From NCBI RefSeq assembly GCF_003790525.1, contig NZ_CP033635.1: 64,000 nt of DNA; one strand, 5' to 3'. Each line of letters starts with the position of its first letter. Position 1 is the first letter of the stretch. Below the pieces are notes generated by a model that had not been told where the DNA came from, did not search any database, and saw nothing but the letters and a program-made list of their open reading frames with translations. The position numbers were made by a program, and so were the translations under genes. Origin of the DNA: Escherichia coli (GTDB lineage Bacteria > Pseudomonadota > Gammaproteobacteria > Enterobacterales > Enterobacteriaceae). Below are positions 42,451-59,297 of the stretch, in pieces.

Positions 42451-43266
42451 TTAACGAATTCTTGCGGTTTCTTTCAGCGCCGCCAATACCGCCAGCCCGT
42501 CGCGCAAGGGGCGCGGCTCGTGTGTGCGGATGAAGTCAGCTCCACCTGCGGCGGCGGCAAGCTCTGCAGCGAGTGTCGCGGCCCCGACATCCCCCGGACC
42601 ACGGCCTGTGAGCGCGCGCAGAAAGGATTTGCGCGAAACAGACAGAAGCACCGGCAAATCGAAGCGCAGCCGCAATTCATCGAACCGCGCCAGCACCGAG
42701 AGCGAGGTTTCGGGAGCAGCCCCCAGAAAAAACCCCATGCCGGGATCAAGGACAAGGCGGTTGCGTTTGATACCGGCTCCCGTCAGCGCCGCGATGCGCG
42801 CGTCAAAGAACGCCGCAATGTGATCCATGATGTCGCCAGCGGGTGCCTCGCGCCGATCTGCCTGCCCGTCTTGCACCGAATGCATAACGACGAGTTTGGC
42901 AGATGATTTCGCCAATTGCGGATAGAACGCAGCGTCTGGAAAACCGCGAATATCATTGAGATAGGCCACACCACGCGACAAGGCATAGGCTTGCGTCGCG
43001 GGTTGATAACTGTCGAGCGAGACGGGAATGCCATCTGCCTTGAGCGCGTCCAGCACCGGCGCGATACGCGCGATTTCTGTGTCGGACGAAACAGGCGCGG
43101 CGTCGGGATTGCTGGATGCCGGACCGAGGTCGATCACATCTGCCCCCTCGGCCATCAGCTTACGCGCCTGCGCAATGGCTGCGTCTGGCGCCAGATACCG
43201 GCCTCCATCGGAGAAACTGTCCGAGGTTATGTTGACGATGCCGAAAATGATGAGCGATTTATTCAT
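42451..43266 (-). CDS. sul2: sulfonamide-resistant dihydropteroate synthase
   Basis: MNKSLIIFGIVNITSDSFSDGGRYLAPDAAIAQARKLMAEGADVIDLGPASSNPDAAPV... Confidence 0.95.
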   Translation of the reverse strand: MNKSLIIFGIVNITSDSFSDGGRYLAPDAAIAQARKLMAEGADVIDLGPASSNPDAAPVSSDTEIARIAPVLDALKADGIPVSLDSYQPATQAYALSRGVAYLNDIRGFPDAAFYPQLAKSSAKLVVMHSVQDGQADRREAPAGDIMDHIAAFFDARIAALTGAGIKRNRLVLDPGMGFFLGAAPETSLSVLARFDELRLRFDLPVLLSVSRKSFLRALTGRGPGDVGAATLAAELAAAAGGADFIRTHEPRPLRDGLAVLAALKETARIR

Positions 43267-53334: not shown

Positions 53335-53990
<656 letters not shown>

Positions 53991-54085
53991 AATGAATCCT
54001 GCCATCAGGTTACTCCATAATTTTGTTGGTCAAGACAGTTAATTACGTGACGTATGCTCAGGCACCGGATGCCGTTTTACAGGGC

Positions 54086-54817
54086 TCACCTGCCATCCAG
54101 TAGACGCCCCGGCCCACGACTGCAACCATAATTACGTTGCCCAGAACCGTCATGCTGCTTCGTCTCATACTTCACGAGATAACAGGCTCTCTCCATGGCT
54201 TTCTGCATCGCTTCCACATCACCACGCTTGACCCAGAGAACAGCGGCTTCACCCGGCTTTTTGTCTGAAGCCTTCCTGGTTTCAGAACATCCACCCGACA
54301 AAGGCGTATCATCGGAAGAAGGGCGAGCATCAGATGATGTCGGTTTACGGAAAGGCGTCCGCCTGGAAAAATGAACCAGTCCATTACCCTGCCAGGGCTC
54401 GAGATGCAGAGCACTGCACCATGCCAGCTTGATCAGCGTCGCCAGCGAAGAAGGAACGGTGAAATCCCCTGGCGAGCACCAGGTATCTTTGTTGAGCAGT
54501 AATATCACGTGATAATGTTTCCTGCCTTTTTCCTTGCCAAACTCCCGACACCAGAAATAACGCAGAGTGGTTGCACGCACACGCTTGTTGGCACGTCGTT
54601 TTTTCCGCTGGTAAGCCTGAATTTTTGCTTTCAGGGATTCGAAAAAACGAGAAATCACTGCTGAATCTAAATCGGTATCCATAATAGTGGCAGGCATATA
54701 CTCAGGAAAACGTAAATCCACCCGAATTAACGAGACGGCACGGTGCTGCACTAGGGCACTGTCGAGAAGGCTGTCAAAACGGGATAACCAGTAAGCATTG
54801 TGTATTGGTTGATTCAT
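54086..54817 (-). CDS. YfjJ/YagK-family (inovirus Gp2-like) protein, paralog 3
   Basis: 243 aa; ...KGRKHYHVILLLNKD... motif typical of the family. Confidence 0.6.
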   Translation of the reverse strand: MNQPIHNAYWLSRFDSLLDSALVQHRAVSLIRVDLRFPEYMPATIMDTDLDSAVISRFFESLKAKIQAYQRKKRRANKRVRATTLRYFWCREFGKEKGRKHYHVILLLNKDTWCSPGDFTVPSSLATLIKLAWCSALHLEPWQGNGLVHFSRRTPFRKPTSSDARPSSDDTPLSGGCSETRKASDKKPGEAAVLWVKRGDVEAMQKAMERACYLVKYETKQHDGSGQRNYGCSRGPGRLLDGR

Positions 54818-55669
54818 GATGAGAGATCTCCGTTGATTTGGATTGACTTCACATCATTAATCACTGCGGTAAAACTTTACGGCATCCCGCCATTGAGCAA
54901 CGCCAATGGCTCCTGATTAAAACAGAATGAATCCCCCACGAAGAAAAGATAAACCTACACGCAGGGTAAAACACACAACAACGGCATAAATGGTTTTTAA
55001 AAACTACAAAGCCCGAAGGGAAACGGATCAACAGAACGTGCAAACAAAACACCAAAAACGCAATCAGAACGCTTTCTGCTGCTGTGAATCAACAACAATA
55101 CCAAAACCTACAGCTTAACCACAAAACTCAATCACAGAGCCGAATAGCGCGTTTAAAACCTGTTTACAGATAACCCTGCCCCGAGAACAAAAACCACCAA
55201 CATCAGAATCGATTTTCTTATCCTGAAAACGTTACTTTTCAACACACCATAAAAACGATTAACCATCGATAACGTAAATCTCATCTGAATCAAAACACCA
55301 GAACCAATCATCACGCTTTTTCTGAAAAGAGCCTTATGATGAAGATAATCACCTTGCACTGAGAAAAAACACCAGGGCCAGTTAATCATCTCATCAATCT
55401 CATCGTTACAAAATCATCCATAAAACCATTTAACAAAATCATCGTAAGCACACAGTAAATCACGCCAGGTTATCTCAGCCGGATTTGCGTTTTACATAAA
55501 AACACTTGTCTCAGGTTAACGACTAAAAACACGAAAACTCATAAAAGGTTAAATGTAACATCAGAAAAATAGAATATCATATTGATTGCTTAAACAGGAA
55601 AGATTGTTTTGTAGTAGCATTAAGCTGATTTTAGTTAACGTAAAAACAGGACTGACAGGTTTACTAAAC

Positions 55670-55890
55670 TGGATGTGTATCAGACAAAGCAATGTGTATA
55701 ACAATACTTAATGAAAACACTTGTAGAATTGTTTATGAAAACATGTGTATGTCTGGTAAAACACTTAGTAGAAAATACGTGTATAACACTTACTGAAATG
55801 CTTAGTAAAAACACTTAGTAAAATATGTGTAGAATTATCTATTTAAAAAGATATGTATATAACACTTAATAAAAACATGTGTATATAGTA
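55670..55890. repeat. degenerate direct repeats (iteron-like) in AT-rich ORF-free region
   Basis: Recurring modules tgtgtat(a)aacacttagta / gtagaatt at about 55674, 55693, 55744, 55764, 55792, 55811, 55826, 55861, 55877. Confidence 0.5.
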
Positions 55891-56567
55891 TCATACCGAC
55901 ATTCTCAACATCTTCAGACACTCATGCAGACTGAATGTTCGTTTCAGTTTTTCACGGCCAGCATGGGGATTTTTGTTCTGAAAACGGAGCAGATTTACTC
56001 TGGAATTATTTTTCTGTCCCCGTATTTCAGGCCCCAGAAAAGACAATCCGAAGCAAACCGTTTGTCAGCTTCCATATCATCTTTTACCCCCGGAAAGTGA
56101 TCGCGTTTTACAACCAGAATGACAGCCATACTGATTATGTCGTCTCCCGGCCCCCTTCACATATAACATGCATGCCTGTCATTGCTTACTGCTCCACATG
56201 ACAGGATTTCACATACAGGATGCGCATTCAGTGTTTTTATCGCCACTATAACAGACAGATTACTGTCGCTTTTACTCTTCAGATTGTTAATCTGACCACA
56301 AGAACAGTCGAACAGTACAACGACACACCCAAGGAGGATATGAGCAGTAGTTGATAGCATGTTTTAATTTATTATGAATAGATCAAGAATAGATCGTGAA
56401 TAGTTAGAGAATAGTTCTTCAGCATCTCACAGAGTGATCAAGCCTTGAAGTGATTGCTTTTTGAACACAAGTCCGGATGCAATGTTTTTTTGTTAACTTC
56501 CTTGCATATTCGATTTCCATGTGATAGTGAAAATCACCAGAAGAGAATGCGATTGAGGCGTAATCAG

Positions 56568-57377
56568 ATGAAACAATATGAAGATGGTTATAACGTGAAT
56601 GGATATAGCTGGGAAAATGAAACAATTGAGTATTTGTTGAATGATAAACAACTGACAGATAATCACATACCTGAATGGGTTAAAAAAAATGAAATTGCAG
56701 CATTCTGGTTCTGGTTAGTTATAATTAACACAGATCCCAAACTCCTTGGGGTTCGTAATGAATTAGGGTTCAATACAGCCATGATGGGGCTGATTCCTGC
56801 GGGGAGTATACCCATAACAACAATTCCTTCAGATCATGAAATGAGACTGGATGTTATAAGCAAATGGATTAATGCATTAATCCTTGACAATCAATCAGAT
56901 TGCTTCATCTCAACAATGCATCAAAACTGGCTGCAGATCGAAAAGAGAAACGAAGCCAAATGGCTTAAAAAGAATACAGAACAACTCGAATGGGCATGGA
57001 AATATATCAATGCACGCATCCCGCACACGTATCTTTCCTGGTTTTATCCTGTAAGTGATAACGAAAGATACATTGCTATCGTAGTTTTACTAAAAATTTT
57101 ATTCCCCGCAGATACACCATACTTACAGCAGCCAAAAGTACTTCACTATGGGGTTGCCGCAAAAGAAAAATTTTTCGACAAGATGCACAATGCATTCCGA
57201 AAACAGTTTACCGACGGAAAAAAAGATAAGCGGGTACAAATCAACGTTAAAATATCATCAGATGCAAAACGTACTCTGGACAGACTGACCAGAGAACTGA
57301 AAACAACACAACAGGCTGTCCTGGAACATCTGATTCAGAACCACAGGCTGGTGATTCAGAACCACAGACTGTATTAA
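56568..57377 (+). CDS. hypothetical protein
   Basis: Start at ATG 56568 with GAGG upstream; about 269 aa; C-terminus encoded by an 18-bp tandem duplication (IQNHRLVIQNHRL); no family recognised. Confidence 0.4.
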   Translation: MKQYEDGYNVNGYSWENETIEYLLNDKQLTDNHIPEWVKKNEIAAFWFWLVIINTDPKLLGVRNELGFNTAMMGLIPAGSIPITTIPSDHEMRLDVISKWINALILDNQSDCFISTMHQNWLQIEKRNEAKWLKKNTEQLEWAWKYINARIPHTYLSWFYPVSDNERYIAIVVLLKILFPADTPYLQQPKVLHYGVAAKEKFFDKMHNAFRKQFTDGKKDKRVQINVKISSDAKRTLDRLTRELKTTQQAVLEHLIQNHRLVIQNHRLY

Positions 57378-58306
57378 CTTTCACCACTTCTGCTCCTGCC
57401 GATTTTCTTCTTTTGGTAGTGTCTCCTGGCTGCGGATATCAGATACTTTTCCGTCATTTTGTTGCAGAACTCTTCAATGTAGTTAATCATTTTCTGGTGT
57501 GCTTTCAGCTTTTCTTCCCCGGGGGACGCTTTCAGATAAATGTCCTCCTTTTCCACAAGCGCATTGACAAACTCCCCTAAACATCCCTGGTTATAAAGCG
57601 ACGTGAAAAACAACACATCCCCCAGTCTCTCCAGTAACTGTGGTTTATCCCCGAAATGTTTTTTTATACTTTCAAAAGGTTTTCTATTTTCCGGATCAAA
57701 AAAAACACTTAATCCCAGTCGCTTATATTCCTGGTAAAAAAGTTCAAACGTCGGGGATGCTGAACGGCAAATAAACGAAGACTGCGCCCATGGATTAAAA
57801 TCTGTGACACGCCTCCCCTCCCGCACTTCCTGTCGTGTCAGCGGTGGTTCAGCAAACCAGGCGTCCAGCTCAGCCGAATCGTTATCCCTGCTCAAAACCT
57901 CATACAAACTGCCCGTGAACGGTTGAGCCGTTTGTTTTGTTGCTTCGCCTTCTGATTGTCTGAATCCATCCACTTTTCTCCGGATATTACGCGGAATCAG
58001 CATAAAAGGCGGGACATTAAGTGATAAACGTTTACCCGTCATGCGATACCATTGACCTACCTCAACCTTAATCCGTGTATCTGACTTTAGCTCAAGTGCC
58101 ATTATGTTAAGCAGGTACAGATAACGCACCGTATAACGATTAAAATGTTTCTCCGGATCAAACGATTCTGACCGTTCTCCTCTGTACACGAGTCTGCTGC
58201 GCTTCAGTATTCGCAGAGTATATTTCCAGGCCGGACTTTTACAAATGGCGGTAACTCTGGCCTTATTAACAATGTCGCGTAATGCATCAATCTGTTGTGC
58301 AGTCAT
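57374..58306 (-). CDS. hypothetical protein
   Basis: About 310 aa, convergent with and overlapping by 4 nt the 56568-57377 gene; no family recognised. Confidence 0.4.
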   Translation of the reverse strand: MTAQQIDALRDIVNKARVTAICKSPAWKYTLRILKRSRLVYRGERSESFDPEKHFNRYTVRYLYLLNIMALELKSDTRIKVEVGQWYRMTGKRLSLNVPPFMLIPRNIRRKVDGFRQSEGEATKQTAQPFTGSLYEVLSRDNDSAELDAWFAEPPLTRQEVREGRRVTDFNPWAQSSFICRSASPTFELFYQEYKRLGLSVFFDPENRKPFESIKKHFGDKPQLLERLGDVLFFTSLYNQGCLGEFVNALVEKEDIYLKASPGEEKLKAHQKMINYIEEFCNKMTEKYLISAARRHYQKKKIGRSRSGES

Positions 58307-58412
58307 CTCTTCCCTCCACACTTTGTCACTCCAGATTTTTTCACGCCCATATTACCTGAATGATAAACCGGATTAGTGTGATCCGGTTCAGTGAAATCAA
58401 CAGGATACCGGT

Positions 58413-59297
58413 ATGTCATTCAGCCATTCTTCCCTCTCCGCACAAGTGAAATCATATCTGACGTTTCTTCCTGAAGAAATTCGCCAGAAAATCCTTGAAC
58501 ATCTCCACGGTGTTATTCATTACGAGCCCGTGATTGGCATTATGGGTAAATCCGGCACCGGCAAAAGCAGTCTGTGTAATGCCATTTTTCAGTCCCGTAT
58601 CTGCGCCACGCATCCCCTGAACGGCTGCACCCGCCAGGCTCATCGCCTCACCCTGCAGATTGGTGAACGCAGAATGACGCTGGTCGATCTGCCCGGCATT
58701 GGTGAAACACCGCAGCATGATCAGGAATACCGGGAGCTTTACCGTCAGTTACTGCCGGAACTGGATCTGATTATCTGGATCCTGCGGGCTGATGAACGTG
58801 CGTATGCTGCTGATATTGCCATGCATCAGTTTTTACTGAATGAAGGTGCAGATCCCTCGCGTTTTCTGTTTGTTCTCAGCCATGCCGATCGCGTGTTTCC
58901 TGCTGAAGAATGGAACGACGCAGAAAAATGCCCGTCCCGTCAGCAGGAACTCTCACTGGCGACAGTAACAGCCCGGGTGGCCACCCTGTTCCCGTCATCA
59001 TTTCCGGTACTCTCCGTTGCAGCGCCTGTCGGCTGGAATCTTCCGGCACTGGTGTCACTGATGATCCACGCACTGCCACCACAGGCAACCAGCGCGGTTT
59101 ATTCACATATCCGGGGGGAAAACCGCTCTGAACAGGCCCGGAAACACGCACAACAGACTTTTGGTGACGCCATCGGGAAAAGTTTTGACGACGCCGTTGC
59201 CCGGTTCAGTTTTCCGGCCTGGATGTTACAGCTTCTGCGTAAAGCCCGGGCCCGCATTATCCACCTACTGGTCACACTGTGGGATCACCTGTTCTGA
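58413..59297 (+). CDS. YfjP/YeeP/YkfA-family GTPase
   Basis: P-loop GKSGTGKSS, G3 DLPG, and conserved island position. Confidence 0.75.
   Translation: MSFSHSSLSAQVKSYLTFLPEEIRQKILEHLHGVIHYEPVIGIMGKSGTGKSSLCNAIFQSRICATHPLNGCTRQAHRLTLQIGERRMTLVDLPGIGETPQHDQEYRELYRQLLPELDLIIWILRADERAYAADIAMHQFLLNEGADPSRFLFVLSHADRVFPAEEWNDAEKCPSRQQELSLATVTARVATLFPSSFPVLSVAAPVGWNLPALVSLMIHALPPQATSAVYSHIRGENRSEQARKHAQQTFGDAIGKSFDDAVARFSFPAWMLQLLRKARARIIHLLVTLWDHLF

Follow-up and report, generated by a model that had tools for sequence, protein, structure and literature searches.

Within a 64,000-nucleotide stretch of Escherichia coli DNA from contig NZ_CP033635.1 (hereafter the window, which is numbered from its first letter), two genes on a genomic island, referred to here as A and B, converge tail to tail, and a comparison of related loci placed them as a conserved backbone pair of Enterobacterales islands and not as swappable cargo. 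We found that A probably ends in a ribbon-helix-helix (RHH) DNA-binding domain whose candidate operator lies upstream of the gene, and we give about even chances to the idea that the two genes constitute a control module of the island backbone. The initial annotation of this DNA had described two convergent open reading frames (ORFs) of 269 and 310 amino acids (aa) with a 4-nucleotide (nt) overlap, situated between an iteron-like stretch and a YfjP-type GTPase gene. The ORF calls and the sequence confirmed the former description, and the positions of the repeats and of the GTPase gene confirmed the latter (Table 1 and below).

The classification as backbone rests on synteny. We examined all short B homologues with readable flanking sequence: the E. 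coli alleles of the window and of loci L002, L003, L021 and L023, the extra copies L022 and L024 of two of these alleles, and seven loci of metagenomic or other enterobacterial origin, L006, L009 and L011-L015. In 14 of these 14 loci, window included, the short form of B was accompanied by a convergent A homologue directly downstream. These A partners ranged from 243 to 320 aa, and the A family profile matched all of them at E values between 1e-21 and 1e-119, including four partners that had not been used in building the profile (3.5e-21 to 2.4e-54). Wherever flanks existed, the order was the same: the GTPase (or WYL) operon reading away from B, then B and A facing each other, an ORF-free spacer, a YagK/YfjJ gene (REP_ORF2-G2P) and AlpA. 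The L009 pair adjoins a gene for TraG of a type IV secretion system (T4SS), a context that places it in an element resembling an integrative and conjugative element. Because homologues of 22-30% identity from different genera keep both the pair and its neighbours, and because the other occupants of the slot proved to be remote homologues of B, the cargo interpretation is not supported for A/B.

Those other occupants are long B alleles found in E. coli islands that match the window only at the GTPase promoter, where they take the same position and orientation as B. They are homologous to B residues ~13-220 (hhalign 96% and 98%; hmmsearch 2.5e-8 and 2e-14 for the 407-aa and 376-aa forms). Compared with the B of the window, they begin with an additional C-x4-C...C-x2-H (Zn-ribbon-like) segment and end in an unrelated C-terminal part, and no A gene accompanies them. 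Among 5426 complete E. coli genomes, the set to which all genome counts given here refer, the long alleles occur in 975 and 463, and are commoner than short B (742). A remnant of A was sought in the long-allele islands L004 and L005 and none was found; with no trace of the gene, we rejected both the fusion of A into the long alleles and its decay within the spacer. By these profile comparisons, at least three very dissimilar gene sets in the slot are alleles of one family.

The slot had been presented initially as one for variable cargo that includes defence genes. This is true of K-12 CP4-57 (L018, NC_000913.3 2761351-2767355), whose yfjJ-yfjP interval contains abpB, abpA ('anti-bacteriophage protein'), yfjM, rnlA and rnlB and gave no match to the A and B profiles, but it does not describe the A/B pair, which was retained at every short-B locus examined. 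AbpAB and RnlAB occupy an interval like that of A/B, between a YagK/YfjJ-family gene and a YfjP-type GTPase gene, yet they are unrelated to A/B in sequence and occur sporadically, as cargo, in contrast to the synteny that A/B show in several genera. Furthermore, the alpA-yfjI-yfjJ block of K-12 CP4-57 is inverted relative to the GTPase gene when compared with the island in the window. Defence-type cargo in related islands was located beyond the YagK/YfjJ genes (a restriction endonuclease, L003:3610-4488; BREX BrxL, L005:1-1722; a TIR protein, L013:10313-11287), suggesting that the true variable hotspot lies there and not beside the GTPase gene. The initial annotation had contrasted its proposal with conserved, non-defence core genes; comparison of the slot across islands assigned the pair to the conserved core, while a non-defence function was not established.

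We next turn to protein A. Its N-terminal ~200 aa are helical and Trp-rich, with the motifs EW...FWFW, WLKKN and WAWxY, and gave no match in family or profile searches. Residues ~222-258 read VQINVKIS-SDAKRTLDRLTRE-LK-TTQQAVLEHLIQN, that is, a beta-strand followed by helix SDAKRTLDRLTRE and helix TTQQAVLEHLIQN, and several comparisons mark this C-terminus as a probable RHH DNA-binding domain. A profile of the C-terminal 60 aa aligned with the E. coli RHH protein YbfE in hhalign at a probability of 87% (E 4e-6). NCBIfam returned RepC_IncLM (0.002) and RepA (RepA/CopB PRK13702; 0.011), both under the cut-off, and the Pfam family RepB-RCR_reg was matched below threshold at values from 0.079 down to 1.1e-3 in A members, as was RHH_1 in four of eight members. 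Distant members matched RepA PRK13702 at 2.6e-4 and 1.6e-3, together with YbfE-type matches, and the A partners in L006, L013 and L014 bore precomputed 'RepB-RCR_reg (weak)' tags. In many divergent A members, all of these matches covered the same residues (~218-260). RHH proteins act as dimers whose intermolecular two-stranded beta-sheet enters the major groove; in the AlphaFold2 monomer model of A, residues 219-230 have a predicted local distance difference test (pLDDT) score <50. The initial statement that neither gene matches a known family accordingly stands for B and gives way in part for A, on account of this weak but reproducible C-terminal match. A PDB profile search gave no match for full-length A; with the C-terminus it gave armadillo-repeat matches, which we discarded as spurious.

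The best evidence that A binds specific DNA lies upstream of the gene. Four GAATAGWT boxes with an exact 11-bp spacing are present on one strand, 152-192 nt before the A ATG, and the whole window contains five matches to this motif, four of them in the cluster. Repeated half-sites phased to one face of the DNA near the A promoter are the arrangement expected of an RHH-type regulator. The E. coli alleles L003, L021 and L023, whose beta-strand is RVQINVKIS, have kept phased GAATAGTT-type boxes, which persist while the upstream DNA and the N-terminal domains of A have diverged to 46-70% identity. In L006, the beta-strand EVQINIKVS is paired with the box GAAATAGTTTGGAACTAGTT, and in L009, CQVNIKIT is paired with ATATAGTTTATAACTATAT. 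Upstream of A in L002 (beta-strand RVQISALIS), no GAATAGWT-type box was detected, and L012 and L015 (LNAEI and LSAEI) have other, T-rich phased repeats at this location. Across alleles, the box motif goes with the beta-strand QIN(V/I)K. Given this covariation, A is probably a sequence-specific DNA-binding protein and probably autoregulatory; we infer that the GAATAGWT boxes are what it binds. Separately, a palindrome, GTGATAGTGAAAATCAC, is present at 56521-56537, 31 nt before the A ATG, and is kept in the sequence type 131 (ST131) allele as GTGATGGTGAAAATCAC; it may serve as a further regulatory site or form an RNA hairpin.

The beta-strand-helix-helix of CopB/RepA2 (IncFII), RepC (IncL/M), RepB-RCR_reg/CopG and YbfE aligns with the C-terminal ~40 aa of A, and RHH repressors, as with A, have short direct repeats about one helical turn apart upstream of the gene. 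CopB/RepA2, RepC, CopG and YbfE are proteins of 45-100 aa with little beyond the RHH, whereas A has 269 aa and places a novel ~200-aa domain before it. Also unlike them, A is borne on a chromosomal island and paired with a convergent gene. We regard A as probably a divergent member of the RHH regulators with an unusual architecture.

The 3′ end of A carries a tandem duplication, which the initial annotation had correctly noticed and had given a unit of 18 bp; Tandem Repeats Finder (TRF) assigned a period of 21 bp. The duplicated stretch (IQNHRLV/IQNHRLY, with a 16-nt exact core) corresponds to the final seven codons of RHH helix 2 plus the tail. Since it falls just outside the B coding sequence (CDS), B is unaffected. 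The relatives P0003, P0006, P0007 and P0008 end in ...LILxGRLD without the duplication, by which comparison it is lineage-specific.

In identical DNA of strain H9Ecoli, RefSeq/PGAP annotates A as WP_032153709.1 and B as WP_023155730.1, each a 'hypothetical protein', and many complete E. coli chromosomes contain DNA 100% identical to that of the pair. The TTAA in which the two stops overlap recurs in L002, L003, L006, L021 and L023; across loci, the two 3′ ends overlap by up to 11 nt or stand up to 122 nt apart. The ratio of nonsynonymous to synonymous substitution rates (dN/dS) was ~0.5 for A and B alike, a value at which both are under moderate purifying selection. The GC content of the region is 37-46%, against ~54% in the downstream operon. 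Because stops are frequent at such a composition, and because length has been kept in homologues of 22-30% identity at this dN/dS, A and B are, by these measures, genuine genes and not chance ORFs. A promoter consensus scan yielded fewer promoter-like sites than shuffled sequences, and a terminator scan yielded only weak terminator-like hairpins inside the genes; neither was used as evidence. An Rfam scan of 53900-58700 gave no credible match.

Protein B is predicted to be all-alpha and basic. In the family alignment, invariant or near-invariant residues fall in five motifs: AW-x-TQ-x-(I/M/T)LKRSG, (I/M)(I/L)(I/V)P-x2-IRRK-x3-F-x-Q, GSLY, (L/Q)E(C/Y)-x-RLG and LG-x-(A/V)LFF. B had no match in Pfam even at E<=10, none in NCBIfam, none in a PDB profile search and only E>0.1 at best in PHROGs, and a structural-neighbour search with a low-confidence query model returned none. 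On the basis of these searches, B and the N-terminal domain of A are outside any described family. Among 5.8 billion protein clusters searched, A matched only 13 and B 69, every one of them unnamed or 'hypothetical', and a profile hidden Markov model of B retrieved 48 proteins at E<=1e-3 from 1.84 billion representatives. The 17 distant B homologues obtained at full length measured 275-343 aa at 22-30% identity. Named members of the B family come from Escherichia, Citrobacter braakii, C. amalonaticus, Hafnia alvei and a Serratia species, a taxonomic range that rests on cluster names; a GTDB genome scan with very narrow patterns from the B-family alignment found one locus, in Hafnia alvei. B-like DNA was present in 742 and A-like DNA in 560 of the complete E. 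coli genomes, with an intact pair (>=80% of the query covered) in 499. B was found in two of 72,556 plasmids and in none of 50,697 phage records.

We also considered how the pair varies. Relative to L002, the segment comprising the A promoter and operator, A itself and the last ~115 codons of B showed ~50% identity, while both flanks showed 75-99%. Among the five E. coli alleles, B residues 201 to the end follow the type of the A 3′ (RHH) region, and residues 1-200 recombine independently. The alignment (A2) resolved B into at least four independently assorting segments, namely the N-terminus (MTAQQ versus MASPS), residues ~150-180, an indel at ~200-225 and the C-terminus, indicating that frequent recombination between paralogous islands within E. 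coli shapes the gene. In these alleles the promoter, A and the C-terminus of B are inherited as a block, a pattern compatible with a co-adapted specificity cassette and equally with simple linkage of adjacent DNA. Co-evolution of A with the C-terminus of B was also considered as a sign of interaction and was rejected, the correlation being indistinguishable from adjacent-DNA linkage.

On the other side of B, the GTPase gene heads a conserved operon that is divergent from B and contains DUF905, DUF932, antirestriction, RadC, DUF987 and CbeA/CbtA genes. Within the control region between them, the 15-bp unit TTCACTCCACACTTT is repeated 2.3 times at 58310-58344. From 58337 rightwards (58337-58700), identity stayed at 95-100% even where the island has a long B allele that is unrecognisable as B at the DNA level, indicating a conserved promoter block with sharp edges. 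Because of this identity, all B alleles would be driven from one shared, back-to-back control region.

Taken together with the arrangement of the island, these features allow us to propose how a control module might operate. Most likely, A dimers would bind the four 11-bp-phased GAATAGWT boxes on one helix face and thereby autoregulate A, and the fast-evolving B, divergent from the GTPase/antirestriction/RadC/CbeA-CbtA operon, would act with A on island expression or DNA transactions. With overlapping stops, and with too little space for a bidirectional terminator at most loci, transcription of either gene probably continues into its partner, which would lead to mutual transcriptional interference. 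The finding that islands without A have long B alleles with a Zn-ribbon-like N-terminus suggests that A may supply in trans the DNA-targeting that the long alleles carry in cis. Contact between A and B, the target of B and the transcriptional interference are likewise points that we infer.

Several observations weigh against this proposal. Every RHH match on A falls under the curated family cut-offs. The AlphaFold2 model of B is poor (pLDDT 59.8), and B has no recognisable DNA-binding or enzymatic domain, which makes the role assigned to it conjectural. The argument that a Zn-ribbon substitutes for A is circumstantial, and physical linkage alone can explain the co-inheritance of A with the C-terminus of B. 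In addition, A is dispensable for viability, as insertion sequence (IS) elements disrupt it in several strains; such disruption is compatible with a regulator, yet makes the module non-essential to the host. No paper in the library searched mentions the A or B proteins by RefSeq accession, and literature searches on YfjP/YeeP, CP4 islands and YagK/YfjJ likewise turned up nothing about the pair.

The neighbourhood on the A side raises a different possibility, namely that the pair controls replication or transfer, with A as a CopB/RepA2- or CopG-like regulator, or as a relaxosome or replisome accessory factor, acting at an AT-rich AAAACACTT region together with the YagK/YfjJ Rep-like protein, and B as a protein that assists the excised island or associates with its initiator. 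The YagK/YfjJ gene is the conserved neighbour on this side, past the spacer, and Pfam tags identified its homologues in L006, L009, L012, L013, L015, L021 and L023. The spacer of the window (54818-56567) is 1.75 kb long and ORF-poor, with 31-41% GC, and a similar ORF-free spacer of about 0.7-1.75 kb adjoins the pair in all related loci, always followed by the REP_ORF2-G2P-type gene. It contains an iteron-like cluster of six same-strand AAAACACTT copies at 55499-55867 (four exact, two with one mismatch; 31-39% GC), within which TRF detected a period of 13 at 55758-55823; this region could be an iteron/ori or an origin of transfer of the island. The top RHH matches of A are plasmid replication regulators (RepC IncL/M, RepA PRK13702 and RepB-RCR_reg), and one homologous pair, that of L009, resides in an element with a T4SS TraG gene. 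Against these points, RHH families are too short for a match to one subfamily to imply function, and the boxes that covary with the RHH adjoin the A start, ~1.56 kb from the Rep-like gene. Moreover, long-allele islands retain the spacer and the Rep-like gene without A, and a replication or relaxase motif was sought in B and none was found. We therefore consider a replication or transfer role unlikely, if worth keeping in mind.

A defence, abortive-infection or toxin-antitoxin-like system, with B as effector or toxin, A as RHH antitoxin or sensor and hypervariability as the mark of an arms race, appears to us quite improbable, although the hypervariability of the slot leaves it a small chance. 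The matching interval of K-12 CP4-57 does hold AbpAB and RnlAB, RHH domains are common in antitoxins, both genes are AT-rich, the alleles at the slot are very divergent and mosaic, and a dN/dS of ~0.5 is high. Like A/B, type II toxin-antitoxin systems with an RHH antitoxin (ParD, RelB, CcdA) are carried by mobile elements and combine an RHH protein with a neighbour whose fold is unrelated; autoregulation, probable for A, is a further resemblance. However, type II pairs are co-directional and co-transcribed, with a toxin that is lethal or static without its antitoxin, whereas A and B are convergent and form no operon, B matches no toxin family, and A is large with its RHH at the C-terminal and not the N-terminal end. 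The defence candidacy proposed initially found no support in PADLOC-DB v2.0.0, which returned no family for any of 12 diverse members, namely A and B themselves, five distant homologues of A, three of B and the two long alleles. Cargo does not typically show such deep synteny with backbone genes, and the recognisable defence cargo of such islands is located elsewhere. Furthermore, IS2/IS3-family elements lie inside A (L019:569-2714 and L020:730-2639; strains EC12, STK39-3-E and others), while B, identical to WP_023155730.1, and the GTPase gene remain intact, in at least seven complete genomes. By sequence, these copies are natural A knock-outs, and since B is intact in them, B is unlikely to be a toxin restrained by A.

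It is a long shot that the slot, holding either short B with A or a long Zn-ribbon B, is a hypervariable specificity determinant through which an island exerts exclusion, incompatibility or immunity towards sister islands that are co-resident or incoming, or else has some new defence or anti-defence activity. If this were true, the cassette of operator, A and B C-terminus would be swapped by recombination and so escape cross-recognition, and B would found a new effector or regulator fold. Finally, it is scarcely credible that the two ORFs are without function or in decay, left in an AT-rich remnant of an island that H-NS silences: the low GC, the IS insertions in A and the frameshifted or truncated database versions P0005 and P0010 point that way, but homologues from several genera preserve length, motifs and pairing down to 22-30% identity, dN/dS is ~0.5 and not ~1, and ~500 complete E. 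coli genomes carry an intact pair.

The features discussed are collected in Table 1. Two further observations concern the surroundings of the pair. Co-linearity with strain H9Ecoli identifies the 271-aa ORF at 42451-43266 (minus strand) of the window as sul2, past which lies aph(3'')-Ib; this region of the island therefore also contains resistance genes. A remnant of an IS110-family transposase gene is located at 53335-53992, between the YfjI-family and YagK/YfjJ genes.

Table 1 Features of the A/B locus and of related loci. Positions refer to the window unless a locus is named.
Feature	Position	Strand	Description or basis
YagK/YfjJ ('inovirus Gp2 family', REP_ORF2-G2P) gene	54086..54817	-	RefSeq; Pfam tags of homologues
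Allelic cassette: A promoter/operator, A, last ~115 codons of B	56218..57718	.	Sliding identity; segment identities
Four GAATAGWT boxes, candidate operator	56376..56416	+	TRF period 11, 3.5 copies
Gene A	56568..57377	+	ATG start, 269 aa, TAA stop 57375-57377; ORF and RefSeq CDS
Probable RHH domain of A (residues ~222-258)	57231..57341	+	hhalign against YbfE; NCBIfam/Pfam sub-threshold matches
Tandem duplication, 21-bp unit, 2 copies	57331..57371	+	TRF: period 21, 2.0 copies, 95% identity
TTAA, overlapping TAA stops of A and B	57374..57377	.	4-nt palindrome, read from sequence
Gene B	57374..58306	-	310 aa from an ATG start; stop codon reads as the reverse complement of 57374-76; ORF and RefSeq CDS
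B/GTPase divergent control region, 106 bp	58307..58412	.	Sequence; TRF
Era/Der-like GTPase gene (YfjP/YeeP/YkfA type)	58413..59297	+	RefSeq 'GTPase family protein'; NCBIfam Era/EngA-type matches
Long B allele, 407 aa, WP_001107221.1	L004:6753-7976	-	B slot, 'hypothetical', no A
Long B allele, 376 aa, WP_073313469.1	L005:6762-7892	-	B slot, 'hypothetical', no A

What is new here is a partner family that had not been described, an N-terminal domain that had not been described, and the convergent-overlap layout of an RHH module on a mobile element. The comparison unites three seemingly unrelated slot occupants into one family, and it takes one false positive off those defence-candidate lists that are built on 'hotspot' position alone. 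Most E. coli genomes contain islands of this kind, and frequently more than one; the islands carry virulence, resistance (here sul2) and defence cargo on a backbone in which almost every gene is annotated as 'hypothetical'. As an ancient, syntenic module of that backbone with a probable RHH regulator and a candidate operator, the A/B pair offers a testable entry to the regulation of these islands.

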